Shown here in pieces: positions 43,184 through 59,611 of a stretch of DNA of 64,000 nucleotides (its first letter is position 1; each line of letters opens with the position of its first letter). A model generated the notes under the pieces. It ran no database searches. It worked only from the letters and a program-made list of their open reading frames with translations, and was not told where the DNA came from. Source of the stretch: Gammaproteobacteria bacterium (GTDB lineage Bacteria; Pseudomonadota; Gammaproteobacteria; UBA4575); the NCBI GenBank assembly GCA_965242685.1, contig OZ251487.1, positions 547,340 through 611,339 of the forward strand, in the 5' to 3' direction. The translations under genes were made by a program, and so were the position numbers.

Positions 43184-43251
43184 GTGGAAGGCTTGCGGAA
43201 ATTTTGACGTTTGATGTTGATATTTTTACCGATTTGTAAATATTTGGTTGG

Positions 43252-45969
43252 TTGGTGATGTTGGAAAGAGAGGTAGAGATTGTGGGTGAGACTGTGGGCG
43301 AATTTCGGGGGGCGTATCTTGGCGCGCGTTTTTATAAGTGCGCGTTGCAGGTGAATCCATCTACGTATGCCGAAGAGTATCAGGGGAAACTGGCTCAGAA
43401 AGAAGACGAATACAACCATGAAATTTGGCGGCAGTGCGAAAAAAATGGCATTGAAATTGTAGGGCTTGCCGACCATGGCCAGGTTGAAAGCTCGGAAGGT
43501 TTGCGGAAATTTTTGACAGAAAAGGACATCACCGTGTTTCCAGGGTTTGAGATTGCCAGCTCTGAAAAGATTCACATGGTTTGTCTTTATGCCAAAAATA
43601 CTGACTCGGACACACTCAACGGGTACCTTGGTCAGTTGATGGGTACGAATTTCAAAAAACTTGAACAGCAGCGAACCTACCCATCTTCACTCAGCTGTGA
43701 GGATATCGACAAAAAAATCAAAGAGCAGGATGGCTTCTGGTATGCCGCACACATGACGGGCAGAAACGGTTTATTAAGATTGGATGGCAGCGGTGGTGGC
43801 CTTGCTCATCTGTGGAAAAAAGATGAGTTAGTCATAGCTGGACAAATCCCCGTCAAAATAGAAGGCTTGAGGGATAACTACAGGAAAATTATAGAAAATA
43901 AGAACCCTGATTATGAAAGAAAAAAGCCTATTGTTATTATCAACGCCAAGGATGTATATGAGCCGGAAACATTGTCAAACCCCGCCGCTTCCTGCCTGGT
44001 GAAAATGACCACGCCTACTTTTGATGCCTTCAAAAAAGCGTTTCACGATCCTGAATCCCGCATTCGATTGAACCATGATGTTCCAGAAAAACCTTATTCA
44101 GTCATCAATTCCATTCAATGGGAAGTTGGCGGGTTTTTTAAGGAAAATACACTGTGTTTCTCCAAACATCTGAACACCGTCATTGGTGGGCGCGGTACCG
44201 GCAAGACAACCTTGGTTGAAGGCATACGCTATGTCCTGGGTCTGCCTATACCGAAAGGAAGCGACAAGGAGCTGAATGAGTTTTATAAAAGGAATCTGGG
44301 CGATTCAAAAATTACTCTGCATGTTACTTCAAAGGCACAGGGTCGGCAGCGTTACACGATCAGTAGGAGGTTTGGCGAACATGCGATTGTGAAAAATGCT
44401 GAGGGAGGTATTTCTCATCTCCTTCCGGAAGATATTTTGCCTGACGTTAAGCTATTAGGGCAAAACGAGATACTGGATATTGCAAAAGACGATGCCGAAA
44501 AACTGTCATTGATTCAAAGTTTCTTACCCGATAGCTCCAAGCTTGATGAGAATCTTCAAAGGATTAAACGAGAGATGGCAAACAACAGAGAGCAGCGGGT
44601 CAAGGCGAATGAGGAGTTTGATCGGTTAGAAAGTGAGGTACAGAAGAAACCGAAGCTGGAAGAGCAACTAGAGCATTTTAAGAAACTGGGCATAGAACAA
44701 AAATTAAAGAATGCTAAACAGATTGAGAAGGAAAAAAATATTCAGGCAAGTATTGAGGGGCAGATTGAAAAGGTTGAAGTATGGCTGGAACGTTACGAGG
44801 AAGTGTTTGATTTAGAGTTTTTGCAAGAAACCAGAATTGAATCCTTACCCAATAAAACTATTTTCGAAAAGGAACGAGACATATTTGAGAAGCTTAAAGG
44901 CCATCTGGATACTTCTGTCGGGCAGGCCAATAAAAATTTGGAAGTCGCCATCAATGAACATAGTGGATTAAAAAAAGAGTGGCAGACCGAAGCCGATAAA
45001 ATCAAGGGCGAGCGACAGCAGGCAATTGCTCAATTACCTGGACATGCCGGGAAAACAGGTGAGGAACTGGGAAAGGAGTACACTGATCTTATCCGTTCAC
45101 TGGAATATATAGAGAGGCAAAAAATTGAATACACACGGCAAAAAAAATTGATCAAAACTCTTAAGGAAGAGAGGAAAGAACTGCTGGAAGTATATCGTGA
45201 AACCGCTTTCAATCGTTTTAAGGCTTTGAGAGAAACCGCCGAAGAGTTAAATCGAGACAATCTGAAAGGGAAGGTGAAACTTAAGGTGAAACGTTTTGGC
45301 AATAAGCAGCCTCTTAAAGATTTTTTGTGCACCATCGACGGTATAGGTGAAGCTAAAATAAAATGGTTGGATAAAGTGGAAACCCTGGATTTGTTAGCCT
45401 GGTCAGAATGGATAAAAGAAAAAAATAGAGAGGCCTTTATGGATGCATACCGAGATTATGGGTTGCAAAAGGGCACCGTTGAAAAATTATTGGGTCCTGA
45501 CTTAGGGAAGAGACTCAAACTGGAAGAGATCGAATTGGAAGAGAAGGTTGAGATCGAATTGAATGTTGCGCACGACGGTGGGGAAAATTATAGGCCACTG
45601 GAATATCTTTCCACCGGTCAGCAATGTACCGCTATTCTCAACCTGCTGCTATTAAATTTAAATTGTGATGATCCACTGATCATCGACCAGCCGGAAGATC
45701 ATCTGGATAACGCCTTCATCGCCGACCGTATCGTGCATGATTTAAGAGAATTTAAGACCAGAAGGCAATTTATTTTTACAACCCACAACGCCAATATCCC
45801 GGTTTTTGGCGATGCCGAATTGATCGCGGTGCTAGATAGTGAAAGGAACGAGGGAGAGGTTAAAGAAGCAGGCTCTATTGATAAAAAAGAGATATGCGAA
45901 CAAACGGCCCAGATACTGGAGGGCGGCGAGGCGGCCTTCCAAATGCGCAGACGTAAGTACGGCTATTAA
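43252..45969 (+). CDS. PHP-like domain fused to ABC/SMC-type (RecF/RecN/OLD-class) ATPase with coiled-coil insert
   Basis: N-terminal PHP-like motifs ('GLADHG', 'FPGFEIAS', 'IHMVCLY', 'YAAHM'). Walker A 'GGRGTGKTT' at 44185..44208, a ~400-aa K/E-rich coiled coil, signature 'LSTGQQ', Walker B 'LIIDQPEDHLD' at 45676..45708, and 'TTHNANIPV'. The architecture recalls proteins I remember as TrlF-family AAA-like ATPases (unverified). Confidence 0.7.
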   Translation: MVMLEREVEIVGETVGEFRGAYLGARFYKCALQVNPSTYAEEYQGKLAQKEDEYNHEIWRQCEKNGIEIVGLADHGQVESSEGLRKFLTEKDITVFPGFEIASSEKIHMVCLYAKNTDSDTLNGYLGQLMGTNFKKLEQQRTYPSSLSCEDIDKKIKEQDGFWYAAHMTGRNGLLRLDGSGGGLAHLWKKDELVIAGQIPVKIEGLRDNYRKIIENKNPDYERKKPIVIINAKDVYEPETLSNPAASCLVKMTTPTFDAFKKAFHDPESRIRLNHDVPEKPYSVINSIQWEVGGFFKENTLCFSKHLNTVIGGRGTGKTTLVEGIRYVLGLPIPKGSDKELNEFYKRNLGDSKITLHVTSKAQGRQRYTISRRFGEHAIVKNAEGGISHLLPEDILPDVKLLGQNEILDIAKDDAEKLSLIQSFLPDSSKLDENLQRIKREMANNREQRVKANEEFDRLESEVQKKPKLEEQLEHFKKLGIEQKLKNAKQIEKEKNIQASIEGQIEKVEVWLERYEEVFDLEFLQETRIESLPNKTIFEKERDIFEKLKGHLDTSVGQANKNLEVAINEHSGLKKEWQTEADKIKGERQQAIAQLPGHAGKTGEELGKEYTDLIRSLEYIERQKIEYTRQKKLIKTLKEERKELLEVYRETAFNRFKALRETAEELNRDNLKGKVKLKVKRFGNKQPLKDFLCTIDGIGEAKIKWLDKVETLDLLAWSEWIKEKNREAFMDAYRDYGLQKGTVEKLLGPDLGKRLKLEEIELEEKVEIELNVAHDGGENYRPLEYLSTGQQCTAILNLLLLNLNCDDPLIIDQPEDHLDNAFIADRIVHDLREFKTRRQFIFTTHNANIPVFGDAELIAVLDSERNEGEVKEAGSIDKKEICEQTAQILEGGEAAFQMRRRKYGY

Positions 45970-45971
45970 GG

Positions 45972-47204
45972 ATGTTGAAAAGCGAGGTATTAAAACTCAT
46001 TGGGCAAGGCGAGGGCGCCAAGCTTGAGTTTAAGCGCGATGACGAGCATTCGAAACAACTTGTCAAAGTGCTTGCCAAAGCGATTGTCGCCTTTGCCAAT
46101 ATGAATGGCGGTAAGATTCTGCTCGGTGTCGAGGATGACGGCAAGGTTAGCGGCATCCAACGGGGCAATCTTCAGGAGTGGCTTATGGATACGGTCATCG
46201 GCAGATATGTTCATCCATTTATATTGCCGGATTACGAAGAGGTCGACGTTGAAGGAAAGCGGGTGGCCGTTGTAACCGTTCCTCAAGGTACCAGCAAGCC
46301 ATACTTTCTCAAAGATAAGGATCGCGAAGATGTTTATGTTCGGTATGGAAATGTTTGCAAGTTGGCGGGGCTTGAACAACTGGCCCGGTTGCTTGATTCG
46401 GGAGGTTTGTTAGCCGCAGAGACGTTTCCCGTACATGGTTCCTCTATCGAGGATTTGGATGAGCGGCGTTATGTCGAGTATTTTGAGAGGGTGCTAAAAG
46501 ACCCCGAGGCAAAAGACTGGGGAAAGGAAGACTGGCAGCAAATATTATTTAATCAAAGTTTTCTTGTAGGGGACGATGCCGCCTCATCGGTTTGTAGTTA
46601 TTTTGCTTATGCGCTGTTTGCCAAGCGGCCCGGATTGAGGCTGCCGAAGGCTGAGGCACGTATCACGATATACCCTGGCGAAGATAAGGATTACCATAGC
46701 GATTATGACGAAGTCCTGGACGCGCCTTTTGTTGGGTTTCGCGGCGAGAACTATCCCACGAGTCAGGCTATCGAGCCTACCTTGCATGAAAGGTTGATCG
46801 CAGCTATTAAGCGGCATTTCAGCAAAGAGGAATTGCAGGGAACGGCGCGGCGACGATTCTGGGACTATCCTCCTAAAGTCGTCAGGGAATTGATAATCAA
46901 TGCACTCGTGCACAGGGACTGGACAAAGAGTAACTATGTGCGCGTAACCGTTTATAGCAATCGCCTGGAAGTTACCAGCCCCGGCGGGCTGCCTAACGGA
47001 CTGACCATAGAAAAGATCAAGAGCGGTGCGCAAGTGTCACGCAATCCACAGTGCGTGAGAATTTTCAGAAATTATGAGTATTTGGAAGATGAGGGCATGG
47101 GTATACGGCGCAAGGTTATCCCGTTGATGCGTGAACATAATGGCACAGAGCCGGAGTTTGAGGACTCTGAACATCATTTCAAAGTGACGCTGTGGAAGAA
47201 ATAG
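45972..47204 (+). CDS. AlbA_2 (Schlafen-type DNA/RNA-binding) + HATPase_c_4-like domain protein
   Basis: N-terminal 'GEGAKLEFKRD...AFANMNGGKILLGVEDDG' and C-terminal 'ELIINALVHRDW...VTSPGGLPNG'. Starts 2 nt after the upstream stop and overlaps the res start by 13 nt. Confidence 0.7.
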   Translation: MLKSEVLKLIGQGEGAKLEFKRDDEHSKQLVKVLAKAIVAFANMNGGKILLGVEDDGKVSGIQRGNLQEWLMDTVIGRYVHPFILPDYEEVDVEGKRVAVVTVPQGTSKPYFLKDKDREDVYVRYGNVCKLAGLEQLARLLDSGGLLAAETFPVHGSSIEDLDERRYVEYFERVLKDPEAKDWGKEDWQQILFNQSFLVGDDAASSVCSYFAYALFAKRPGLRLPKAEARITIYPGEDKDYHSDYDEVLDAPFVGFRGENYPTSQAIEPTLHERLIAAIKRHFSKEELQGTARRRFWDYPPKVVRELIINALVHRDWTKSNYVRVTVYSNRLEVTSPGGLPNGLTIEKIKSGAQVSRNPQCVRIFRNYEYLEDEGMGIRRKVIPLMREHNGTEPEFEDSEHHFKVTLWKK

Positions 47205-49990
47205 ACCATCTCATCATCAATTCTCCCTACGAGAAACCTAAGGAGCATTGGTTTTATAAGGTTGAGACTAAAAGATTCAAGAAGGAAGAAGGACGACGGC
47301 GGGCGGGGTATCTGATAGCGACGCCCGGTTTGAAGGGGCGGGGGCATGACGACCCGGGCAGGTTCGTGGAGATTCCGCTCGTCAATAAGATTCGCGGCTG
47401 CGTCGATGCCTGGCGCGAGGCGGGTTATCCGGGGGTAAGCGGGATGACCAAACGCCTGTTGGATTATTGGAACGATCCGGATGAGCGGGACGGCAAGCGG
47501 TTTTTCTTCTGTCAACTGGAGGCGGTGGAGACGCTGATCTGGTTTACCGAGGCGCCCGACAGCGAGAAGGTCGGGATCGAGATGCCCTCGGATGGCAGTG
47601 ACTTCTTGCGCCTGTGTGCCAAGATGGCGACCGGCACCGGTAAGACGGTGGTGATGGCGATGGTGATCGCCTGGCATATCCTGAACAAGGTGACGGATCG
47701 GCGGGACGTGCGTTTTTCCAAGAATATTTTCATCGTGGCGCCCGGTCTGACGGTTAAGAGCCGCCTGGCGGTGTTACAGCCCGCCGACGCCAATAATTAC
47801 TACGAGGAATTTGGCATCGTGCCCACAGACCTGATGGACAAGCTGCGGCAGGGCAAGGTACGGGTTTGCAACTGGCACGCACTCGGTTGGGAGAGCGAGG
47901 AACGGATCGCAAAGAAGAAGGGGGTGGACAAGCGCGGCGCAAAGAGTGACGAGGCGTACACCCGCGAAGTGCTTGACGAGATGGCCAATGCCCGCAATAT
48001 ATTGGTGATCAACGACGAGGCGCATCATGCCTGGCGCGTCAATCCCGAGGCAGAGGGGAAGTATCTGCGACAGAGGGATATGAAGGACAGCGCCGAGGAG
48101 GCGACGATCTGGGTGGGCGGATTGGATCGCCTACACAGGACGCGCGGTATTTTGGCCTGCTATGATTTTTCGGCGACGCCGTTGGCGCCAACCGGAAAGA
48201 AAAGCGTCGAAGAAGCGCTTTTCGGGTGGATCATCAGCGATTTTGGGTTGAATGATGCGATTGAATCGGGGTTGGTGAAGACGCCCCGCGTGGTGGTGCG
48301 GGACGATGCGCTACCGGACGCCAAGACTTATAAATCGCGCCTTTATCACATCTACAGCAATCCCAAGGTGAAGGATGACCTGAATCGCAAGGCAAGCCCC
48401 GAGGAACCGTTGCCGTCTTTGGTGCTCAATGCGTATTGTCTGCTTGGGTATGACTGGAAGGAGACCGCCCGGGACTGGAAAGATGAAAAGGGTGGGCCGC
48501 CGCCTGTGATGATCACCGTCGCCAACCGTACCGAGACCGCCGCCAGGATCAAGTACGCGCTGGAACGAAATCAGATATGGGTAGAGGAATTGTGTGATCC
48601 GGAACGCATTCTGCACATCGACTCCAAGGTGCTGGCGGAGGCCGAGACGGCGGATGAGGCGGTGGCGTTGAATGGGAATGGGAATGGCGGAGGAGGGGAA
48701 ACCCGTAGTAAAAAGCCCACCAAGGCGGCAAGGGCGGAGCAGTTACGCAGGCAGGTGGATACGGTTGGCAAGCCCGGGGCGCCCGGGGAGCAGATCCAAA
48801 AGGTTATTTCGGTGGGGATGCTTTCCGAAGGCTGGGACGCCAAGAACGTTACCCACATTATGGGCTTGCGTGCCTTTACCAGTCAGTTGTTGTGCGAGCA
48901 GGTGGTGGGCAGGGGGCTGCGAAGGATGTCTTATGAGGTGGATGAAAGTAGCGGCTTGTTTGCGCCGGAATATGTCAATGTCTTCGGTGTGCCGTTCAGT
49001 TTTTTGCCGCATGAGGATAGTGGCAGTACACCGGCGCCCACCTTACCGAAGACGCGTATTTATGCCGATCCCGACAAGGGCAAGTTTGAGATCCGCTGGC
49101 CGAACGTCATCCATATCGAGCATACCTATCGCCCGCGCCTTTTTGTGGATTGGAAGAAGGTAGAAACGTTGGAGCTGGAGGCCGGTAATACGCCCAGCAT
49201 TGCGGAATTGGCGGATGTCATTGCAGGGAAGCCCGATGTTACGAAGGTCAAAGACATAGACCTGAGTAAATTGATACGAGGACAACGATTGCAGGAAGTT
49301 GTCTTCAAGATGGCGCGGGAGACTTATGAGCGGATGAAGCCGGACTGGAAGGGCGGCAAGGAGTTTTTGTTGGCGCAACTCGTTGGGCTGACCGAGGAAT
49401 TTATCCATTCCGACCGTATCGTTATCCATCCGGAACTTTTTAATCGGGATGATTTGCGGCGGCGTGTGATGCTGATCTTGCACATGAGCGAGGTCTTGAA
49501 TCACCTGTGGCAGGCGATTCGGTTTGAGAATACCGAGAGGCTGAAGCCGGTTTTTGACCAGCGTCCGTTCCGTGCCACCGGCGACATGCGTGCCTGGTAT
49601 ACCGGCAAGCCCTGTGAATATACGCGGCGGTCGCATATCAATCTCTGTGTCTGTGACAGCACTTGGGAATCGTCCGAGGCCTTTGAGCTTGACCGTAACC
49701 CGGCGGTGGACGCCTGGGTGAAAAACGATCATCTGGGGTTTGAGGTTCTCTATATCTACAATGGCGTCGTGAAGAAGTATCGGCCCGATTTTATTATCCG
49801 CCTGAAGTCGGGTGAGTTTCTGGTACTGGAGACCAAAGGGCAGGAAACGCAACAGGACAAGGCCAAGCGCAAGTTTTTGGATGAGTGGGCGCGGGCGGTC
49901 AACGGGCAGGGCGGGTTGGGTACGTGGCGCACCGCCGTTTCAAAGGCGCCGGCGGATGTTAGGGATATTCTTCATCGTTACGGGGACTGA
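47192..49990 (+). CDS. Type III-like restriction subunit (SF2 helicase + C-terminal PD-(D/E)xK nuclease), Res-like
   Basis: Motif I 'MATGTGKT' (47624..47647) and motif II 'DEAHH' (48014..48028). Motif VI-like 'VVGRGLRR'. C-terminal 'RPDF...LVLETKG' with D at 49787, E at 49829 and K at 49835. Confidence 0.85.
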   Translation: MEEIDHLIINSPYEKPKEHWFYKVETKRFKKEEGRRRAGYLIATPGLKGRGHDDPGRFVEIPLVNKIRGCVDAWREAGYPGVSGMTKRLLDYWNDPDERDGKRFFFCQLEAVETLIWFTEAPDSEKVGIEMPSDGSDFLRLCAKMATGTGKTVVMAMVIAWHILNKVTDRRDVRFSKNIFIVAPGLTVKSRLAVLQPADANNYYEEFGIVPTDLMDKLRQGKVRVCNWHALGWESEERIAKKKGVDKRGAKSDEAYTREVLDEMANARNILVINDEAHHAWRVNPEAEGKYLRQRDMKDSAEEATIWVGGLDRLHRTRGILACYDFSATPLAPTGKKSVEEALFGWIISDFGLNDAIESGLVKTPRVVVRDDALPDAKTYKSRLYHIYSNPKVKDDLNRKASPEEPLPSLVLNAYCLLGYDWKETARDWKDEKGGPPPVMITVANRTETAARIKYALERNQIWVEELCDPERILHIDSKVLAEAETADEAVALNGNGNGGGGETRSKKPTKAARAEQLRRQVDTVGKPGAPGEQIQKVISVGMLSEGWDAKNVTHIMGLRAFTSQLLCEQVVGRGLRRMSYEVDESSGLFAPEYVNVFGVPFSFLPHEDSGSTPAPTLPKTRIYADPDKGKFEIRWPNVIHIEHTYRPRLFVDWKKVETLELEAGNTPSIAELADVIAGKPDVTKVKDIDLSKLIRGQRLQEVVFKMARETYERMKPDWKGGKEFLLAQLVGLTEEFIHSDRIVIHPELFNRDDLRRRVMLILHMSEVLNHLWQAIRFENTERLKPVFDQRPFRATGDMRAWYTGKPCEYTRRSHINLCVCDSTWESSEAFELDRNPAVDAWVKNDHLGFEVLYIYNGVVKKYRPDFIIRLKSGEFLVLETKGQETQQDKAKRKFLDEWARAVNGQGGLGTWRTAVSKAPADVRDILHRYGD

Positions 49991-52900
49991 GGGTTACGCG
50001 GCTTATTTTCTCCGTGGCGTATTTTCCCCCGCTGCCTATTTTCCCTGTGGCGTGCTCGGCGTACTCGTTCAGCCAGCAGAATGTATTGACCAGCTTCATC
50101 TGCTCCACCGTGCCGCAAGGGATTTCCAGCAGGTTGGGATTGGCGACTACAACGGCTAGACACTGGGCGCGGGAGACGGCGACATTTAGGCGGTTCTTGC
50201 TGTAGAGAAACTCGATGTTGCGCGGCAGGTCTGCGGCGCTGGATGTCACCATAGAGATCAGGACGATGGGCGCCTCCTGTCCCTGGAATTTGTCGACGGT
50301 GCCGACCTTGGCGTTCTCCGGCAGGATGGAGCGCAGATAATTCACCTGCACATTGTAAGGCGTGACCACCAGGATGTCGTTCTCGGTGATCGGGCGCGTG
50401 CCGCCGTCGCGATCGGTGAAGGCCTGCCCAAGCAGGGTTTGGTATTTGGCTTTGATGATCCGGCCTTCCTCGACGCTCTTTTGCGAACAGCCTTCATGCC
50501 GGGCCGGGATCATCGCTATGCCTTCGTTGGGGAGATCAATGCCTTGTAGATTCAGATTACGCGCGGCGGTGCTTTCGTGGGCGGTCAGGCGGCCATCATA
50601 GAAGGCATCGGAAATAAATTGGCAAATGCCGGGGCGCATGCGGTACGTCCGGCCAAGAAAAATGCCGCGTTCGGCAGGGATGGTAGAGTGATCGCCAAGT
50701 AGGAATTCCAGCACCGATAGTCCGGCCTCGCCCGGATGCGTGCCTTGAATGGGCTGGCCCAGCTGCATTTGATCGCCCACCAGGATAATGTTTTTAGCGG
50801 CGGTGGACATGGCCACGACGTTGGCGGTTGCAACCTGTCCGGCCTCATCGATAAAGAGATAGTCCAAGCGACCATCAAAATGCGGGTTGGCGAAGGTCCA
50901 TGCCGTTCCGGCAAACAGATCGGCGCCGAGGTTGATGTTGTCGGTCTTGGTTTCGGGAGTAATGAAGCGGCCATTAAAGAAGGTTTCAGCGTTACCGCCA
51001 CTGGCCTTTTTGATGCCATCGAAGTGCACGCCTTTTTCGGCGGCGACATTTTCCACCTTTTCCAAGAGGTTGTGGATGGCCTTGTGGGAGTTGGAAGTAA
51101 CGCCGATCTTTTTGCCGCGTTTGATCAAGTCGACGATGATGTGGCTGCTGGTGTAGGTCTTACCGGCCCCCGGCGGGCCTTGAATGAAGAGATAGCTGTT
51201 TTCCAGCGCGGCGATGGCTGCCAGCGCATCTGTTTGCAAATCATCGGAGGTGATGATCGCCTCGCCGGGCGGCTTGTCGTGAATGCGCGGCACACGGCGC
51301 GCCAGCAGTTCGGTTGCGGCGCGGGCGGTGTCGGGCGATTGCAATACCTGATCGGCATAGCGGTAGAGGGCCGCGCGGATGATCTTGCTGTCAATCGGGC
51401 CCGGCGGGCCGATGGAGAGGCTTGCCGGCAACGGGTCTTTGTTTGTCCCGCGCCTGATCCTGACGATGCGGGTATCCTCGTCGATCTCGACGAGGGTGCC
51501 GGCGGTCTTCATGGCGGCGACGTCAACGGCCTGTGCGCCGACCTTTAGCTTGTATTCCTGTGACGGGAAACGGTAGGTATAGATCAGGGAGCGTTTGTCC
51601 GGTTCGGGCGCACCGATCTGTTGTAGGCCGCCCAGGCATTCGGTGTCGTCGATTAGCTCGTCTTCAAACTTGTTTTGACGTTCGAAGCCGCTCCACCATT
51701 GCGGCTTGGCTTCCCGGTTGTGAAACTCTAACAGATGGGCCAGCAGATGGGATAGCAGATGGGATGGGCGTTCATCGTTCGGCGGCGGGTCTTCACCGGT
51801 CACGCCCAGACGGGTCTGGTAGTGCTCATATTCGATCTCCCAGTCTTTACGCTGTAGCTGTTCGTCTTCGGCATCTTCCGGCACGCCCTTAAACCATGCC
51901 GTATCTTGAGGCTTGAGGGTCAGCAGCCAATCACGCAGCAGGTGGGTGGAAACGCAGTCTACCTCGTTATAACCGGCGATCGCTTGCAGCAATTCATCGG
52001 CGCCGGTCTCGCGCCATTCGTTGTAAAAGATGATGCTATCCGCCGCCGTTGCCACCGTATTGTCTCGTTCGTCCATGTAGAAGGTTTCCAAGTTTTTGAT
52101 GGAGTAGCCGGGTTCGGAGGTGCGGATGCTCTCGCGCACCACCAGGTACAGGTCGATGAATTTTTGATTGCGGAGTAGGTTGTCCAGCCGTTCCTCGCAA
52201 ACCGCATAGCGGCAGGCCAGCCGTTTCAGCGCGGTCGTTTCATAGTGGTTGTAGTGGTAGATGTGGGCGTGCGGGTGCGCGGCCAGATGGTCGGCCAGAA
52301 AGCCCATAAAGCGTTGGAAGGTCGCTTTCTCCTGTTCGTGATCGTGTGCCCAGAAGGGTTTGAAGCGCTTTTCGCCGTGCTTGGAGTAATAGACGCCAAA
52401 CAGGTATTCCAGGCCGTTCGGGTAGAGTGGATCGCCCTCCATATCGAAGAACAGGTCGCCATCATCGGGCACAGGCAGGCGGGCGAAGCCCTTGTTTGAC
52501 GGGAATGTGTTCGATGGAAATGCGTCGGGCGGGCACGGGATGATCTCGCATTGGTCCTCGCCCGTGGTGGCTTTGTGATGCTGTAAGACCGCCTGTGCGC
52601 GCAGACGCTGGAATACGTCACGGTTTAGGTCGGGGATTTTTTTGTGCGGCGATGTTGCCGCCAGATCGGCAACGGTGCGGATGCCGGTGTTGCGCAGCTT
52701 GTCCATCTGAGCGCGTTGGATATTGGCCACGAGGCTTAAATGGTCGTCTTTTTCCCAGCGCGCTGTACAGCCATCGCGCCACTGGCAGGCGTTACAATGG
52801 CCGCATGGCTCGGGGTAGGAATTGGTAGGCAGGTTTTGAAGATAGCTTTCAAAACGGCCTTTGGCGCGGCGGTAGTAGTAGAAGAAATCGGCCACCCGGA

Positions 52901-53434
52901 AGCCGTGTTTTTTGTGGTCGCCCAGAAACAGGTGCATAGTGGCCGGACGCAAGCCCTGTAATGCCGCCAGCAGCTCTGAATACACGCACAGTTGCATGAT
53001 GTGTTTGGGCGCGGCGGTTCGCGCCAGTTTGGTGTCGAGCACCTCATAGCTAAAATATCGCCCAAGCCGGAGGATGTGTCGCATTTCATCAGGAAGTCGG
53101 CATCGCCCCGCCAAGGGGGGTCAAGGAGTACGGCCTGATAGATGACGTCCGCACCGGATTGCATGGCATCGTGTGTAAGGGAAGCCCGATCCCGTAAGTT
53201 GTGACCTTTGGGGATCTCAATAACGGCTTTGCCTTCGTCCTTCAGGTGTTGGAGATAGGCGGCCTCGTGCTCCAAGCCTTTCTGCCGCAGTAGTCGGTCG
53301 GTCGTACTGGCTTCGGTCTTGTCCATCTTTTCAGTCAGCGCCTTCACGTCAAGAAGGCTGGCATGGTGACATCCCAAGAAGGTGGTCAAGTCCGAGGGGG
53401 AGTAGAGGATCCGATCGTTGCCGTATTGCTGCAT
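49959..53434 (-). pseudogene. RecB/Cas4-like Fe-S nuclease + RNaseH-fold exonuclease-like + Dna2/Upf1-type SF1 helicase, interrupted by a -1 frame change near 53055-53065
   Basis: Two overlapping ORFs (52736..53434 and 49959..53114) join into one architecture. 'GDADFLMKCDTSSGLG' in the first frame runs into 'YFSYEVLDTKLAR' in the second. Also present: Cys cluster 'CGHCNACQWRDGC' (52767..52805), 'FFDMEGDP', Walker A 'GPPGAGKTYT', 'FIDEAGQ', 'GDQMQLGQP', 'DKFQGQE' and 'NVAVSRA'. Confidence 0.7.
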
Positions 53435-53865: not shown

Positions 53866-53942
53866 GCGCCCGTAGCTCAGTTGGATAGAGTGCGTGGCTA
53901 CGAACCACGAGGTCGGGAGTTCGAATCTCTCCGGGCGCGCCA
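53866..53942 (+). tRNA. tRNA-Arg (anticodon ACG)
   Basis: 77 nt. Acceptor GCGCCCG/CGGGCGC, anticodon loop CTACGAA, TPsiC GTTCGAAT, encoded CCA. Confidence 0.9.
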
Positions 53943-54026: not shown

Positions 54027-54983
54027 ATGAATATAAAAATAATCAAGAGAAGCGATGCACGCGAATCCGAGATAACCGCCGAGGCCCTGTATGAGAGCCG
54101 CCGCGAGTTCCTGCGAGGGTCGGTCTCCATGGCCGCCATGACGATGATGCCGGCGTTTTCGATGTGGCCGGTGGCCGGACGTGCCAAGCTGGATTTTGGC
54201 AGTATCGGCGAGAGTGCCTTTTCCACCGGCGAGGAGCTTACATCCATCGATGATGTGACGAGCTATAACAATTTCTATGAGTTGGGGACGGGTAAGAAAG
54301 ACCCGAAACGGAACGCGCATCTTCTGAAGGTTACGCCCTGGCACGTTCGGGTCGAGGGTGAATGCGACAAGCCGGGGGAATATGCGCTAGAGGATTTTAT
54401 CGGTTCATCAAGGCTGGAGGAGCGCATCTATCGGTTACGCTGTGTCGAGGCCTGGTCGATGGTCATCCCCTGGGTGGGGGTGGAGCTAGGTTCCGTTCTC
54501 AAGCGTTTTGAGCCTAATTCAAGGGCCAAATACGTGCAGTTTTTTACCATCCATGACCCGGAAAATCTGCCGGGGCAGAAGCGCCCCATCCTGGAGTGGC
54601 CGTATCGTGAGGGGCTGCGTATGGATGAGGCCATGCACCCGCTTGCTATCTTTGCGGTCGGTCTGTACGGGAAGGAGATGCCAAATCAGAACGGCGCGCC
54701 GCTGCGTTTGGTGGTGCCGTGGAAATACGGCTTCAAGAGTATCAAGTCCATCGTCAGGGTGCGTTTCACCGAGGAGCAGCCGGCGACCACCTGGAATACT
54801 TCCGCCCCGCGTGAATATGGGTTTTATTCCAACGTCAATCCGGCAGTGGATCATCCGCGCTGGAGCCAGAAGCGCGAACGCCGTATCGGTGAGTTTCGAA
54901 AACGCGAGACGCTGCCTTTTAACGGCTATGCCGAGGAAGTGGCCGGTTTGTATGGAGATATGGATCTCGAGAAGTATTTTTAG
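54027..54983 (+). CDS. msrP: protein-methionine-sulfoxide reductase catalytic subunit MsrP (YedY)
   Basis: Tat signal 'SRREFLRGS' and molybdopterin-oxidoreductase core '[18 protein letters not shown]' and '[18 protein letters not shown]'. Confidence 0.9.
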
Positions 54984-55005
54984 GTTCTTTTCGGTTTTTC
55001 TTCTG

Positions 55006-55036
55006 ATCCACGTGGGGTTGTGGATTCGTGTGTTTT
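55006..55036 (+). terminator. weak hairpin + T-tract downstream of msrP
   Basis: atccac (55006..55011) pairs with gtggat (55020..55025) around an 8-nt loop, followed by tcgtgtgtttt. The stem is short and the T-run interrupted. Confidence 0.3.
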
Positions 55037-55081
55037 CGAGATGATGTAGGAGAAGTGTATGGTGTATATAGTTGCTAAACG

Positions 55082-55339
55082 TTGTGTATATTTACCAAGT
55101 GTCTGACGTGTAGCAATTCGTACCCACTCACACGTACCGATAAACAATTCTGCTCAGACACTTGCGAAGGGCGTGCAGGCTATCGGAGACGCAGGGGCTT
55201 ACCCGTATCCGATGTTGATTTTGAGGCGTACCAGCGCGAGCAAGGCCGTACAGCACATAGACGGCGTGAGCGGAAAAACTATCTACCCGTGACGCCGACA
55301 GTTCGGCAGAAAGAACAACAACAGGAGAGCGTAGGGTGA
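55082..55339 (+). CDS. small basic zinc-ribbon-like protein
   Basis: 85 aa with 'CLTC...x14...FCSDTCEGRAGYRRRRG', a Cys4 ribbon followed by an Arg-rich tail as in many small phage or mobile-element proteins. TTG start. Overlaps the next ORF by 4 nt. Confidence 0.45.
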   Translation: MCIFTKCLTCSNSYPLTRTDKQFCSDTCEGRAGYRRRRGLPVSDVDFEAYQREQGRTAHRRRERKNYLPVTPTVRQKEQQQESVG

Positions 55340-55638
55340 ATGGTTTTATGCAATGGTGTTTAGGCGCGTTCATTATCAGTATGGTAGGGCTGGGGGTTAT
55401 GGAGATTTTTGAGCCTGAGGCGGATTTACCCAACAAGTATGATTTTTGTAAGACGGAAGGCGGGTATTGGCACTGTTCTCATCATCCAATGACGTATGAA
55501 TATCCAGAAAGGCTTGAATGCGTGGACAAACATTGTGAAGTCAAAATAGACAGGAAAACAGGCGACAAGTTCAAGTTCATGGAAATACGTTTTGAAAATT
55601 GGGAAAAAGAGCGGGGGTATCTACACGTCCATGATTGA
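55336..55638 (+). CDS. small membrane-anchored Cys/His-rich protein
   Basis: 100 aa with an N-terminal TM helix. GTGA overlap with the upstream ORF. Confidence 0.45.
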   Translation: MNGFMQWCLGAFIISMVGLGVMEIFEPEADLPNKYDFCKTEGGYWHCSHHPMTYEYPERLECVDKHCEVKIDRKTGDKFKFMEIRFENWEKERGYLHVHD

Positions 55639-55674
55639 CGGGCAACAGCAACAAGGCGATAACGATACAGTACA

Positions 55675-56034
55675 TTGAACAGTTACATTATAAACAGCGA
55701 AACGAAAAACAAGCTGGTGACATTGGGTTGTGACATTGGCGTGGCGGTGGGCGTGTTACTTACTTTGGACAGACACAAAATACCGCCGTTTGACGATGGA
55801 TTCAGATGCACTTATGGAGAGTTCAAAGAGATGTTGAAACGGGGGTATCTAGTGGAGATAAGCGTCCCCGATTTAGGGGCAATAATGGACTTGTTTAATC
55901 ATTACCCAACAGCAAAGTTAGAGGGTATACAGCTTGACTTATTTAATCATGATCCAACAACAGAGGCGCAGATAAAAAACAAGGTTATATCGGTTCACAA
56001 GACGGACAAGGGGAAGGGGAAAATATACTTTTGA
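55675..56034 (+). CDS. hypothetical protein with internal 'DLFNH-PT' repeat
   Basis: 119 aa with 'MDLFNHYPT' and 'LDLFNHDPT' 15 residues apart. TTG start, so the call is uncertain. Confidence 0.35.
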   Translation: MNSYIINSETKNKLVTLGCDIGVAVGVLLTLDRHKIPPFDDGFRCTYGEFKEMLKRGYLVEISVPDLGAIMDLFNHYPTAKLEGIQLDLFNHDPTTEAQIKNKVISVHKTDKGKGKIYF

Positions 56035-56176
56035 ACGTGTAATAGGAAGGGGTATTGATGGCGTGTACTTTACAGCGTTGTGCGGGCACTTGCAGGTTTA
56101 GAGCTGGTTGAATTTCAATGCCGTTTCGTTTATCTTGAAAAGGTGATGGAAGGGAGCAAATATAGGAGAACAATGA

Positions 56177-56467
56177 ATGGAAACCTTTAATTTCTTTCAA
56201 GCAATAATTGATCAATACGGAGTGGTGGGCGTGATAGTTGGTTTTGTTTGGCTTCATTTCCAAATTAAAGGTATGAAAGACAACACCAATACCCGAATTG
56301 ATGGTATCAAGGATGACGTAAAAGAGATCAAGGATTTGTTTGTAAGGCACGAGCAGCAATGCAATGAAAGACACCAACAGTTCATGGACTATATGAAAGA
56401 ACACGGGGACAGAATATCCAAGCTGGAAGGCAGGTTAGACGAGAGGCAACAACAGCCGGCGACCTGA
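56177..56467 (+). CDS. small N-terminally anchored coiled-coil protein, paralog 1
   Basis: 96 aa with a TM helix ('VVGVIVGFVWLHF'), 'NTRIDGIKDDVKEIKD' and a conserved tail 'HQQFMDYMKEHGDRISKLEGRLDERQQQPAT'. AGGAGA SD-like sequence 7 nt upstream. Confidence 0.6.
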   Translation: METFNFFQAIIDQYGVVGVIVGFVWLHFQIKGMKDNTNTRIDGIKDDVKEIKDLFVRHEQQCNERHQQFMDYMKEHGDRISKLEGRLDERQQQPAT

Positions 56468-56566
56468 CCTGTTCCTAGTGCGCGTGATTATGATGTTCCG
56501 TAAGGCGAGGTAGTTTCGTTTATCTTGAAAAGGTGGCGGAAGGGAGCAAATACAGGAGAACAATGA

Positions 56567-56902
56567 ATGGAAGCCTTTAACTTCTTTCAAACAATGGTTG
56601 ATGAATATGGAGCGGTGGCAGTGCTGTTTGGCTTTGTGTTGGGTTGGCTTTATTTCCGTTTCCGAATTGATGGTATAGAAAACAACATCAATATCAACAT
56701 GGAAAACATCAATACCCGAATTGATGGTATAGAAAACAACATCAATAAAAGCATAGAAAGGATCGAGAATGCGTTTGCAGAGCATGAGAGGAAATGCGCG
56801 GAAAAGCACCAACAGTTCATAGACTATATGGAAGAACACTCGGGCAGAATATCGCATATAGAAGGCAGGCTAGACGAGAGGCAACAACAGCCGGCGACCT
56901 GA
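56567..56902 (+). CDS. small N-terminally anchored coiled-coil protein, paralog 2
   Basis: 111 aa with the same leader, TM helix and tail as paralog 1, plus an in-frame 18-codon duplication ('RIDGIENNIN' twice). Confidence 0.6.
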   Translation: MEAFNFFQTMVDEYGAVAVLFGFVLGWLYFRFRIDGIENNININMENINTRIDGIENNINKSIERIENAFAEHERKCAEKHQQFIDYMEEHSGRISHIEGRLDERQQQPAT

Positions 56903-57002
56903 CCTGTTCCTAGTGCGCGTGATTATGATGTTCCGTAAGGCGAGGTAGTTTCTCGTTTATCTTGAAAAGGTGATGGAAGGGAGCGATACAGAGGAATAAT
57001 GA

Positions 57003-57329
57003 ATGGACAATAGCGGCAACGGCTTCATTGAATGGCTTTTCAAACAGGGTTCGTTGGGAGCGATACTTGGAGTTGTCTTGTTTGTGGGATATAACAGTAT
57101 CAATACCAAAATTGACAACGTGTATACCAATCTCAATACCAAAATTGACAGCGTGAGTACCAGTATCAATGCCAGAATTGATAGCGTGAATGTAAGAATT
57201 GATGGTATCCAGGCCGATATAAAAGAGATCAAGGATAGGGAAAAGTGGTTTATGGATCATGTGATCAAAAACGGGGACAGGATATCTAAGCTGGAAGGGC
57301 AACTGGCGAGGGAACAGGGCAATTCTTAA
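57003..57329 (+). CDS. small N-terminally anchored coiled-coil protein, paralog 3 (diverged)
   Basis: 108 aa with a TM helix, four 'N-x-[KR]-I-D-x-V' repeats, 'IKEIKD' and 'GDRISKLEGQL'. Confidence 0.55.
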   Translation: MDNSGNGFIEWLFKQGSLGAILGVVLFVGYNSINTKIDNVYTNLNTKIDSVSTSINARIDSVNVRIDGIQADIKEIKDREKWFMDHVIKNGDRISKLEGQLAREQGNS

Positions 57330-57482
57330 TCCATAGTCTCAGCGTCCCATCGTCTCATCGTCCCATCCTATATACGCACTTCATAATATCGGGACAAACC
57401 CCACAGCCATAGGCTATGCCCCCTCGCCGGCGCGCTTGCGGCAAGCCTGCCTGCGGAAGGGGATGCCGGCGGGGTTTTATCC

Positions 57483-58100
57483 GTGAAGTTCAGCGCAAGA
57501 TACTTGGTAAGGCCGGTATTGTTTCTGGCGCTGCTTATCCCGCTAGGCCTGCACGCCTACGGGTTTTTCAGTGGTGCCGCCGGCGCCAATCCGATTGAGT
57601 TTGTGACGCGGCGCGCGGGCGACTGGGCGTTGAGGATCCTGCTGATCACCCTGGCGATCTCGCCGTTGGCAAGGATCACCGGCTGGCATGGGTTGGTACG
57701 CTACCGAAGGATGTTCGGCCTGTTTGCATTTTTCTACGTCTGCGTCCATCTCTTTTTGTATGTCACCTTGGATAAATTCTTCGATATGGGTGAAATCCTG
57801 GATGACGTGATCAAGAGGCCGTTTATCACCGCCGGTTTTTCGTCGTTTTTGTTGCTGATACCGCTTGCGGTTACGTCAACCAGGAGAATGGTGGAGCGGT
57901 TACAGCATCGCTGGGTTTTGCTGCACCGGTTGGTCTATCTGATCGCGGTGCTGGCGGTGTTGCATTTCTGGTGGATGGTGAAGGCGGATACGCGGGAGCC
58001 GGCCATCTATGCGGCCGTGCTGGCCGTGCTGCTCGGGTTCAGGTTGTTTTTCTACGTGAGGAGAAGGCTGCGCCCCTTGTCACGCCGAGGCGGAATATAG
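57483..58100 (+). CDS. msrQ: protein-methionine-sulfoxide reductase heme-binding subunit MsrQ (YedZ)
   Basis: 205-aa, six-TM ferric-reductase-like protein with 'RRMFGLFAFFYVCVHLFLY' and 'LHFWWMVK' His ligand contexts. GTG start. Confidence 0.85.
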   Translation: MKFSARYLVRPVLFLALLIPLGLHAYGFFSGAAGANPIEFVTRRAGDWALRILLITLAISPLARITGWHGLVRYRRMFGLFAFFYVCVHLFLYVTLDKFFDMGEILDDVIKRPFITAGFSSFLLLIPLAVTSTRRMVERLQHRWVLLHRLVYLIAVLAVLHFWWMVKADTREPAIYAAVLAVLLGFRLFFYVRRRLRPLSRRGGI

Positions 58101-58565
58101 ATGGTCTTTACAGGTTTCGGTGATCGTTTTGCCATCGTTATGCGAGTCGCCGATCAGCTTTTGTACGGCGTGCGTAAATTCATGGTTCAGGTTGCTGAAA
58201 AATGTGGTTGAAAGCGGGTATTTTTCCGTCGGTAGCGCGATGATTTTTCGCGGAAATGTTACCGGCAGGATCGTCCGGTCTTTATACATGACGTGCAGCG
58301 CAAAGACCCAACGCCAGTCCCAGGGGCAGGGCGCCGCAAGGTCGGTTTCCGGAGTGATGCCGAAGACATCGCCATCCGTCGGGTGAACGTCGCTGAATAC
58401 ACGGGCTTGAAAGGAGGAGAGATCATTTGCGCACAGCAGGCCGGCCGCTACGATGTCGGGCTTGCTCGAGTGTTGGACGAGGCGTGCATACAGCGATGGG
58501 TAGATGAGTTGCAGAAAGGCGAGGAGCTTGGGATAGGGTTCAAGCGGACGGGCGGCGGGTTGCAT
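58080..58565 (-). CDS. hypothetical protein with C-terminal HExxH motif
   Basis: 161-aa longest ORF in this interval with 'NHEFTHAVQ'. No family recognised. Its 3' end overlaps the msrQ 3' end by 21 nt. Confidence 0.35.
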   Translation of the reverse strand: MQPAARPLEPYPKLLAFLQLIYPSLYARLVQHSSKPDIVAAGLLCANDLSSFQARVFSDVHPTDGDVFGITPETDLAAPCPWDWRWVFALHVMYKDRTILPVTFPRKIIALPTEKYPLSTTFFSNLNHEFTHAVQKLIGDSHNDGKTITETCKDHLYSASA

Positions 58566-58666: not shown

Positions 58667-58743
58667 GCGCCCGTAGCTCAGTTGGATAGAGTACCTGGCT
58701 TCGAACCAGGTGGTCGGGAGTTCGAGTCTCTCCGGGCGCGCCA
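58667..58743 (+). tRNA. tRNA-Arg (anticodon UCG)
   Basis: 77 nt. Acceptor, D and T arms are nearly identical to the tRNA-Arg(ACG) at 53866. Anticodon loop CTTCGAA, encoded CCA. Confidence 0.88.
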
Positions 58744-58788: not shown

Positions 58789-59157
58789 TTACCTGTTCAA
58801 CACGTTGTCCCGATGCCTTTCAATCGTGTTGATGACCTTGTCTATTTGCGGTTCCCCGATATTCATTTCACGCAACGTTTTTTTCACGCATTCCATCATG
58901 GCGTCAAAATGTTCATCGCTCAGGCCGTTTTCCACCGCATTTTTATGCGCCCTACGCATGTCTTTGCCGGTATATAGGGAAGGGCCGCCGAAGATGTAGG
59001 TTAGAAAAGCGTTCATCTTCAGCTCTTGCTTTTTGATGTCCACGTTTTCAAAAAATCCCTTGATACGCTCGTCACGCAGTATGTTTACGTACAGATAGTG
59101 CGAGGCCTTTTTAACGGTGTCTTTACCGCCGATTTCTTGGTATAGAGTTTCGTCCAT
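58789..59157 (-). CDS. glbN: group I truncated hemoglobin (trHbN), copy 1
   Basis: 122 aa with 'LYQEIGG', 'FF..VD', 'FLTYIFGGPSLYTGKDMRRAH' and 'HFDAMMEC'. Confidence 0.8.
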   Translation of the reverse strand: MDETLYQEIGGKDTVKKASHYLYVNILRDERIKGFFENVDIKKQELKMNAFLTYIFGGPSLYTGKDMRRAHKNAVENGLSDEHFDAMMECVKKTLREMNIGEPQIDKVINTIERHRDNVLNR

Positions 59158-59242: not shown

Positions 59243-59611
59243 TCATCTGTTGAGTACGTCGTCTCGATAGCTTTCGATTTTGTCTAGAACTATGCCTGCC
59301 TGACTTTCACCGACGCCCAAGTCGTTCAACGTTTTTTTCACACACTCTAGCACCGCATCAAAATGTCCGTCATTCAGACCATTTTCCACCGCCTTTTTGT
59401 GTGCCTGACGCATGTTTCTGCCTTCATAGATGGCCGGGCCACCAAGTGCCTGGGTCAAAAAGGTGCTCATCTTGCGCTCTTGTCTTGCTATGTCGACGGT
59501 ATCAAAGAAGCCTTTGATACGGTCGTCATTCATGATGTTCAGGTACAGGTGATGCGCGGCCGCCGTCATGGCGGCTTGACCGCCAAGTTCTTCGTATAGG
59601 GTCTTGCTCAT
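59243..59611 (-). CDS. glbN: group I truncated hemoglobin (trHbN), copy 2
   Basis: 122 aa, collinear with copy 1 without gaps. 'LYEELGG', 'FLTQALGGPAIYEGRNMRQAH' and 'HFDAVLEC'. Confidence 0.8.
   Translation of the reverse strand: MSKTLYEELGGQAAMTAAAHHLYLNIMNDDRIKGFFDTVDIARQERKMSTFLTQALGGPAIYEGRNMRQAHKKAVENGLNDGHFDAVLECVKKTLNDLGVGESQAGIVLDKIESYRDDVLNR

Follow-up and report, generated by a model that had tools for sequence, protein, structure and literature searches.

In a 64,000-nucleotide stretch of gammaproteobacterial DNA (NCBI GenBank assembly GCA_965242685.1, contig OZ251487.1, positions 547,340 to 611,339; hereafter the window, whose own numbering is used throughout), the genes msrP and msrQ, which encode the two subunits of one periplasmic protein-repair enzyme, are separated by a 2,499-bp gap with six co-oriented open reading frames (ORFs), designated o1 to o6, on the plus strand. 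With a probability of roughly 0.6, we consider these 2.5 kb to be an old, lineage-confined, strain-variable, composite accessory islet that resides in the msrP-msrQ spacer without mobility machinery of its own. It is made up of module B (o1-o2-o3), on the msrP side, and module A (o4-o5-o6), a tandem array of paralogous genes on the msrQ side.

Both genes of the interrupted operon are intact. msrP (54027-54983, plus strand) matches the MsrP equivalog NF003767 of NCBIfam (E of 1e-138; 461.8 bits against a cutoff of 207) and Pfam Oxidored_molyb, and its product has a twin-arginine translocation (TAT)-type signal with the motif RREFLRGS; msrQ (57483-58100, plus strand) matches the MsrQ equivalog NF003831 (E of 2e-53; 180.8 bits against a cutoff of 130) and Pfam Ferric_reduct, which identifies its product as the heme-binding membrane subunit. 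The locus thus resembles the canonical msrPQ (yedYZ) operon in that both subunits are present, intact, co-oriented, and recognized as equivalogs, but it differs in its spacer, which measures about 0 to 140 nt there and 2,499 bp with six ORFs here, such that msrQ is not directly 3' of msrP. The original prediction, made from the letters of the window, had described this layout, and its descriptive claims stand: ORF calls place the msrP stop at 54983 and the msrQ start at 57483, with 2,499 bp between them; the six ORFs, of 85 to 119 amino acids, share one orientation; o1 and o2 are coupled through a GTGA overlap of 4 nt; and no redox or molybdenum-cofactor family matches any of the six. The gap was also said to be richer in AT than either gene, a difference that survives calculation, as its GC content is 44.7%, compared with 55.7% in msrP, 56.3% in msrQ, and 51.3% over the whole window, and only 2.8% of 2.5-kb windows have a GC content as low. 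Likewise, GC at third codon positions (GC3) is 0.47 to 0.52 in the cassette ORFs versus 0.68 in msrP and 0.75 in msrQ.

A 2.5-kb msrP-msrQ spacer is exceptional. Of the 80 msrP loci sampled in GTDB species representatives (54 to 71% amino acid identity), 65 have msrQ directly behind msrP, no more than 460 nt away in the raw alignment, and in the remaining 15 msrQ is not detectable or the edge of the contig is reached. A second set of 80 loci, recovered from Joint Genome Institute (JGI) metagenomes via MsrQ, includes 67 with both genes, and the estimated spacer in all 67 is -18 to +142 nt. The expectation that msrP and msrQ are usually adjacent elsewhere is therefore borne out in 132 loci, in which they lie no more than about 460 nt apart, as is the claim that the window carries extra lower-GC DNA in this spacer relative to every other lineage sampled. 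Relatives of o1 to o6 occur in none of these other 132 msrP/msrQ loci (65 from GTDB and 67 from JGI). The same ORFs in many distant taxa would, according to the original prediction, have marked a conserved extension of the operon; because 0/132 loci encode them, the block is no widespread operon extension.

Versions of the islet occupy the same msrP-msrQ site in three relatives, designated L082, L081, and L169. The comparison with related msrPQ loci, which had been expected to define an empty site and the exact junctions, thus yielded same-site versions but neither of those. (i) L082 (Logan SRR17504027, 5 kb), in which the MsrP C terminus is 100% and MsrQ is 93% identical at the amino acid level, reads msrP-TnpB-o1-o2-o3b-o4/o5-like paralogue-o6-msrQ-tRNA-Arg, where o3b is unrelated to o3; its flanks have diverged synonymously from those of the window by 0.13 in msrP and 0.24 in msrQ. 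The TnpB gene is a separate 1.5-kb insertion into the msrP-o1 spacer (L082:348-1852), a TnpB-only element of the IS200/IS605 type that encodes a 453-amino-acid protein with an OrfB_IS605/Cas12f-like TNB domain, and its empty site in the window is at about 55053-55061. (ii) L081 (ENA, 1.2 kb) reads o3b-o4-o6-msrQ, its o6 being one 33-nt repeat shorter. (iii) L169 (ENA ERZ25068320 contig_8, 1.76 Mb; congeneric) is syntenic with the window at 83 to 87% nucleotide identity from the restriction-modification island to an acyltransferase gene, a range that takes in tRNA-Ser, tRNA-Arg, msrP, msrQ, the globin genes, and a FadL-like gene, and about 15% of the nucleotides in its flanks differ from those of the window. 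Its msrP-msrQ spacer is 855 nt long and lacks o1 to o3, and its sole paralogue, P0009, joins an o6-like front to an o4/o5-like tail ending in QEPAT. Remnants lie on both sides of P0009: before it (about 7895-7953), a leader followed by ATGGATAAC and fused to a second leader, and after it (about 8387-8470), an o6-type fragment that is 86% identical to o6 residues 82 to 108. The array adjoins msrQ in all four genomes or contigs examined; the window, L081, and L082 have two to three copies in their islets, and L169 has one copy plus the 5' and 3' remnants; module B is an indel of about 1 kb that is absent from L169.

The proteins of module A share a single plan, in which an N-terminal membrane helix (residues ~6 to 34) is followed by 0 to 10 eleven-residue (hendecad) repeats of the NxRIDxV type and a conserved tail. 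The first paralogue, o4 (56177-56467, plus strand; 96 amino acids), has one repeat and a tail ending in QQPAT, and its product is identical in L081, where the nucleotide differences are exclusively synonymous. The second, o5 (56567-56902, plus strand; 111 amino acids), is not a separate unit in L081 or L082, and its segments turn up in mosaic genes there. The third, o6 (57003-57329, plus strand; 108 amino acids), is always the copy adjoining msrQ, and its product is 93% identical in L082, 87% identical in L081 (tblastn), and 76% identical in L169; Tandem Repeats Finder (TRF) resolves its hendecads as a tandem repeat of 33 nt x 3.1 at 57091-57191. The C-terminal block of o4 to o6 is ...F(I/M)DYM(K/E)EH(G/S)xRISxxEGRLDERQQQPAT, and the tail of the family as a whole is ...YMKxHEGRISxLEGRLDERQQQPAT. 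This family is very small: five matches were found among 5.8e9 clustered proteins, and 19 representative clusters (E of <=1e-3) among 1.84e9 proteins, with the membrane helix and the C-terminal motif conserved throughout. Its members come mostly from short contigs of one metagenome series, the expected product of strain heterogeneity at a repetitive locus.

Each array gene travels with a leader (GTTTCGTTTAYCYTGAAAAGGTGAYGG), a Shine-Dalgarno (SD) sequence, and a conserved trailer. The leader of the first unit (56035-56176, plus strand) has the motif TCGTTTATCTTGAAAAGGTGATGGAAGGGAGC at 56126-56157 and the SD sequence AGGAGA, and the two trailer/leader spacers that follow (56468-56566 and 56903-57002, both plus strand) have the leader motif at 56516-56547 and 56953-56984, giving three copies in the window where chance predicts 0. 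These two spacers are 92% identical to each other, against 59% between the neighboring coding sequences of o5 and o6. The leader is also kept upstream of paralogues in L081, L082, L083, and L088, the last being a second family locus in the same genome as L169 (L088:8001-8845; ERZ25068320 contig_8, ~1.63 Mb), where a tandem pair of paralogues, both carrying the leader motif, is flanked by a tadA-like deaminase gene on one side and a type III restriction-modification system on the other, and the second copy reads through the usual QQPA(T) stop. The locus at L088 is without msrPQ. Three paralogues are recombinant in structure, P0002 and P0003 being mosaics of o4 and o5 segments and P0009 a hybrid of o6 and o4. 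Given the changes in copy number and repeat number, the remnants, and the mosaic genes, the array changes through unequal crossing-over and gene conversion between its units.

On the minus strand, an open frame of 130 to 140 amino acids opposes each array unit (55985-56404, 56435-56857, and 56910-57302) and spans the leader too. Most likely they are mirror ORFs that arise from the codon composition of coiled coils; unlike them, the plus-strand frames are backed by SD sequences, family conservation, and the ratio of nonsynonymous to synonymous substitution rates (dN/dS).

Module B differs in character from gene to gene. o1 (55082-55339, plus strand; 85 amino acids) has a TTG start without a clear SD sequence, and its product has a zinc ribbon-like N terminus (CxxC...CxxxC), a sub-cutoff resemblance to the DUF2116 treble clef (E of 0.003), and a basic tail; it is 88 to 89% identical to the L082 copy by tblastn and global alignment, with the zinc-ribbon cysteines kept. 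o2 (55336-55638, plus strand; 100 amino acids) has a GTG start preceded by the SD sequence GGAGA and encodes an N-terminal membrane helix and, after it, a domain rich in Cys and His in which four Cys are conserved; the sole homologue found is in L082, at 58% identity. Because the synonymous divergence (dS) between these two copies is 1.1, far in excess of the 0.13 to 0.24 in the flanks, the o2 allele appears to have been exchanged by recombination between strains and not to have diverged in place. o3 (55675-56034, plus strand; 119 amino acids) is an orphan with a TTG start codon whose choice is uncertain, and no homologue turned up in any of the family, phage, IMG/VR, and PDB searches made, nor is a gene with exactly its product on record. 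Its position is a variable slot, occupied in both L081 and L082 by o3b. In the favored reading, module B is an indel in which recombination between strains has replaced the allele of o2 as well as the gene in the o3 slot. Structure prediction with AlphaFold2 gave mean confidence (pLDDT) values of 48 for o3 (single sequence) and 45 for o2 (two sequences), too low for a fold search, and searches of PDB sequences with the family profile and with o3 returned noise only.

The extent and coding status of o1 and o3 are less certain than those of o2 and o4 to o6, because o1 and o3 have TTG starts without a clear SD sequence and no database matches; for o1, whose coding status is moderately supported only, the homology search found no database protein sharing word matches, not even a self-hit. 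A further small frame, a 15-codon mini-ORF at 55059-55106 (MVYIVAKRCVYLPSV) with the SD sequence GGAGAA, overlaps the o1 start in another frame and is probably a chance ORF, since its ATG is not kept in L082.

Could the block, then, be largely nonfunctional DNA, a mixture of decaying repeats whose ORFs are chance or relic frames? The start signals of o1 and o3, the lack of database words shared with o1, the absence of the exact o3 product from the record, the truncated remnants in L169, and the ease with which this composition yields long mirror ORFs on the minus strand would all fit that view, which we nonetheless regard as highly improbable. o2 and o4 to o6 have good SD sequences, the membrane helix and C-terminal motif are preserved over the 19 representative clusters, and the o1 cysteines persist in L082. 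Moreover, dN/dS is well below 1 for o2 (0.27) and for o6 (0.26 against L082 and 0.12 against L081) and is 0.40 for o1; together with the synonymous-only differences in o4, these values (0.12 to 0.40) indicate that the cassette genes are under purifying selection; for msrQ, the value of 0.13 against L082 indicates the same.

The same selection would be expected if the ORFs formed a lineage-specific functional extension of msrPQ, that is, co-regulated small membrane proteins acting as partners, assembly factors, or substrates of MsrQ or MsrP. Such a role would account for the co-orientation and short spacers, for retention at one site across diverged relatives with the array always joined to msrQ through a conserved spacer, for the lack of a strong terminator after msrP, and for the predicted N-terminal hydrophobic helix in five of the six ORFs, which would place them in the membrane that holds MsrQ. 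We consider it unlikely, however, in view of the 0/132 other msrPQ loci with such ORFs and of the differences among close relatives in the o3 slot, module B, and copy number, and because an array of the family also exists at a locus without msrPQ and the neighbors of distant members are unrelated. Nor do the ORFs have any redox or molybdenum-cofactor similarity, and their Met content is low (1 to 6 per ORF across the cassette).

With regard to origin, the original prediction held that a phage- or mobile-element-derived module had inserted precisely into the junction between the two genes, and neither part of this claim fares well. No family in Pfam, NCBIfam, PHROGs, or PADLOC matches any of the six ORFs above threshold. 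The proposed search of phage databases left o1 to o4 unmatched (tblastn against 50,697 INPHARED phage records), and pattern and tblastn searches of IMG/VR found no relative of the array family, o1, or o3 and no match to the leader motif. The only phage link is a weak one: 8 of the 25 members of the array family match phrog_1009, a phage family without a known function (best E of 1e-6; o4 E of 9e-6), which may reflect a shared composition of membrane helix plus coiled coil; profile scans also gave sub-threshold matches to holin, spanin, and XhlA-like proteins, with E values of >0.01 for the named lysis families. Phage i-spanins, holins, XhlA-type proteins, and phrog_1009 resemble the array proteins in having ~100 amino acids with a single membrane helix and a coiled coil, but no endolysin, o-spanin, or other phage gene is present here, and there is no sequence match to a phage genome. 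In line with the claim that no recombinase is present, neither recombinase domains nor an IntI integrase were found in the ten larger neighboring ORFs scanned (38.2 to 63.0 kb). The inter-ORF spacers contain no attC-like inverted repeats (seed of 6, distance of <=150 nt), and the only GC-rich palindrome of the gap precedes msrQ. The gap has no transposase gene, and neither terminal inverted repeats nor a target-site duplication is found at the block ends; the sole pair of inverted arms that spans the block measures 13 nt and falls within the o1 and msrQ coding sequences. Prophage traits (an integrase, att sites, neighboring phage genes) were likewise not found, and an Rfam scan of 53.4 to 58.8 kb recovered three tRNAs and nothing else. 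A single precise insertion is at odds with a block that is both old and composite and with the occupation of the same site in L082, L081, and L169.

A recent arrival of a moron- or cassette-like module, carried passively in the junction, is accordingly a reading to which we give little credence and which is quite unlikely. It draws on the GC and GC3 values, lower than those of msrPQ, on the full-length though weak phrog_1009 match and the sub-threshold holin, spanin, and XhlA-like matches, on the tolerance of the spacer for insertions evident from the IS605-type TnpB in L082, and on a location between tRNA genes beside a defense island, but it has to contend with the lack of INPHARED and IMG/VR homologues among the queries tested, with the lack of an integrase, transposase, attC site, terminal inverted repeat, or target-site duplication, and with genes that are under purifying selection in a composite block that predates the split of at least four genomes (13 to 24% synonymous or ~15% nucleotide difference).

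Several known systems were considered as identifications of the block and were rejected or left unsupported. A cluster of attC sites lacking an integron integrase (CALIN), i.e., an integron cassette array, is likewise a run of small, co-oriented, promoter-poor, lower-GC ORFs without a nearby recombinase, but the attC-like imperfect palindromes are missing here, as is IntI, and what recurs between the ORFs is a leader in direct orientation that is not palindromic. A prophage or phage moron is unsupported for want of homologues of the queries tested in phage genomes or IMG/VR and of integrase, att sites, or phage neighbors; an insertion sequence (IS), transposon, or miniature inverted-repeat transposable element (MITE) for want of a transposase or of terminal inverted repeats with a target-site duplication at the block ends; and a known antiphage defense system for want of a significant PADLOC component match (none for o1 to o4, and coiled-coil noise only, E of 0.002 to 0.009, for o5 and o6). 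The Bdr proteins of Borrelia are small, multicopy, membrane-anchored paralogues with a variable number of central 11-residue repeats. The array offers an analogy to these Bdr/KID proteins, in that its multicopy paralogues have 0 to 10 eleven-residue repeats and the 33-nt repeat differs between the window and L081. Membership was rejected, however, as matches to the KID repeat of Pfam, PF02524, have E values of 0.13 to 0.51 and 11 to 13 bits against a cutoff of 20.8, and the membrane helix is N-terminal here, whereas the Bdr anchor is C-terminal; the QQPAT tail is unrelated, and the host replicon is a gammaproteobacterial chromosome. The literature, searched for split msrPQ operons and for Bdr, yielded nothing useful.

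The signals available for expression of the split operon are few. A consensus scan of 53.4 to 58.8 kb detects sigma-70-like promoters only at two places upstream of msrP and at one on the minus strand, and no convincing terminator. The msrP-o1 spacer (54984-55081, plus strand) has a weak hairpin followed by a T-run at 55005-55036, a terminator-like match that is not above shuffle expectation (fold z-score of -0.8). The o6-msrQ spacer (57330-57482, plus strand; 153 nt), which is conserved in L081, L082, and L169, begins right after the o6 stop with a tandem repeat at 57331-57367 (CCATCGTC x 4.6, or a 16-nt unit x 2.3) that is kept in L081, and continues with a GC-rich imperfect hairpin at 57396-57477 that ends in TTTTA, 5 nt before the GTG of msrQ. 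This hairpin occurs once in the window and is conserved in relatives, and its fold z-score (-1.15) is indistinguishable from that of shuffles. Because msrQ is intact and under purifying selection and no promoter was found in its 153-nt spacer, it is most likely transcribed by read-through, from either the msrP promoter or signals associated with the array leaders. The array itself probably has expression signals of its own, independent of the msrP promoter, because the same leader accompanies the family at the locus without msrPQ; it would then do more than hitch-hike on msrPQ transcription, one of the two options in the original prediction, the other being that msrQ is uncoupled from msrP. 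Within the leader, CTTGAAA resembles a -35 element, with no conserved -10 element after it; sigma-70, sigma-54, sigma-32, and sigma-E promoters and a CsrA site were considered by eye as identities for the leader and, being unproven, were rejected. A bolder proposal, and in our judgment a very unlikely one, is that the array genes with their leader and trailer constitute a new cassette family that spreads without a recombinase, diversifies by gene conversion, and encodes a variable-length membrane stalk, serving phage exclusion or host interaction, for example, one array having been wired into msrPQ, an envelope operon for oxidative stress, such that msrQ depends on transcription through it.

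Several points weigh against the reading as an old accessory islet and against the expression model attached to it. An empty site did not turn up in any close relative (the best GTDB MsrP is 71% and the best JGI MsrQ 74 to 75% identical), which leaves the junctions of the original insertion and the succession of events undefined; for module B, gain in the window and loss in L169 are both possible. o1 and o3 lack convincing start signals, and the distant members of the array family have unrelated neighbors, which encode a response regulator (L086) and a superoxide dismutase (L087). For the leader, the consensus fold is weak (-5.3 kcal/mol, with compensatory change in only 2 of 12 pairs), and its sequence matches no recognizable promoter consensus. 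Read-through, leader promoters, and the coupling of msrQ are all things that we infer, and the hairpin before msrQ, if an efficient terminator, would contradict read-through. The functional guess discussed below, in turn, derives only from predicted architecture and neighborhood and is held with low confidence.

The surroundings of the locus are themselves of interest. Two tRNA-Arg genes of the same orientation flank the msrP...msrQ block: tRNA-Arg(ACG) at 53866-53942, 84 nt after which msrP begins, and tRNA-Arg(TCG) at 58667-58743; the two cross-match in BLAST, and each is 92% identical to the L169 orthologue of the other. A tRNA-Ser(GCT) gene lies just upstream on the opposite strand. Directly upstream of the tRNA genes is a defense-type island (40541-53434) with an N6/N4 DNA methylase, an SMC/AAA_23 ATPase, a Schlafen AlbA_2/HATPase_c_4 protein, a ResIII helicase, and an RNase_H_2 plus AAA_11/12 helicase-nuclease with similarity to MkoA of PADLOC. 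The SMC/AAA_23 ATPase gene is the lowest-GC stretch of the window (~42.5% near 43.4 kb). The helicase-nuclease gene (49959-53434, minus strand) is split into two overlapping ORFs of 1,051 and 232 amino acids, which suggests a frameshift or pseudogene. The neighborhood itself is variable, as the whole 3.4-kb helicase gene is missing from L169, where ResIII is followed directly by tRNA-Ser. Downstream, a 161-amino-acid ORF without a family match (58080-58565, minus strand) shares 21 nt with the 3' end of msrQ. It is 90% identical at the amino acid level in L082, and L169 has a called gene of 143 amino acids in the corresponding place, so that the ORF is probably a real orphan gene. Beyond it are tandem paralogous ORFs of 122 amino acids (58789-59157 and 59243-59611, minus strand), the first of which matches Pfam Bac_globin (truncated hemoglobin-like), and both members of the syntenic pair in L169 are annotated as Bac_globin.

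The site of the islet lies at the edge of a variable, tRNA-flanked region rich in defense genes, with module A as the common resident beside msrQ. The block belongs to a known kind, the flexible genomic islet of orphan genes, with which it shares a lower GC content, orphan genes, polymorphism in the form of presence or absence and of allele replacement, the lack of its own mobility genes, and proximity to tRNA genes and a restriction-modification island. It differs from other such islets in lying inside a two-gene enzyme operon and in consisting partly of a self-similar tandem array with conserved leaders. As to function, the array proteins are probably, though with low confidence, single-pass inner-membrane proteins that oligomerize via a variable-length hendecad coiled-coil stalk. 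The variability at the level of strains and the restriction-modification islands beside both family loci in complete genomes suggest, again with low confidence, a role in the envelope under diversifying pressure, e.g., phage exclusion, which fits better than methionine-sulfoxide repair.

The locus provides a clear case of a two-subunit enzyme operon that tolerates long-lived, strain-variable, unrelated genes between its cistrons, and it defines a very rare family of small proteins, modular and recombining, with a conserved cis element that moves along with the gene. Without an envelope- or phage-related role, it would be an ordinary flexible islet of orphan genes. Its interest lies in its place inside a two-subunit enzyme operon and in a rare recombining family with a traveling leader. 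Should the array proteins prove to have such an envelope- or phage-related role, the locus would offer a compact model of how gene conversion generates diversity in uncultured Gammaproteobacteria with small genomes.

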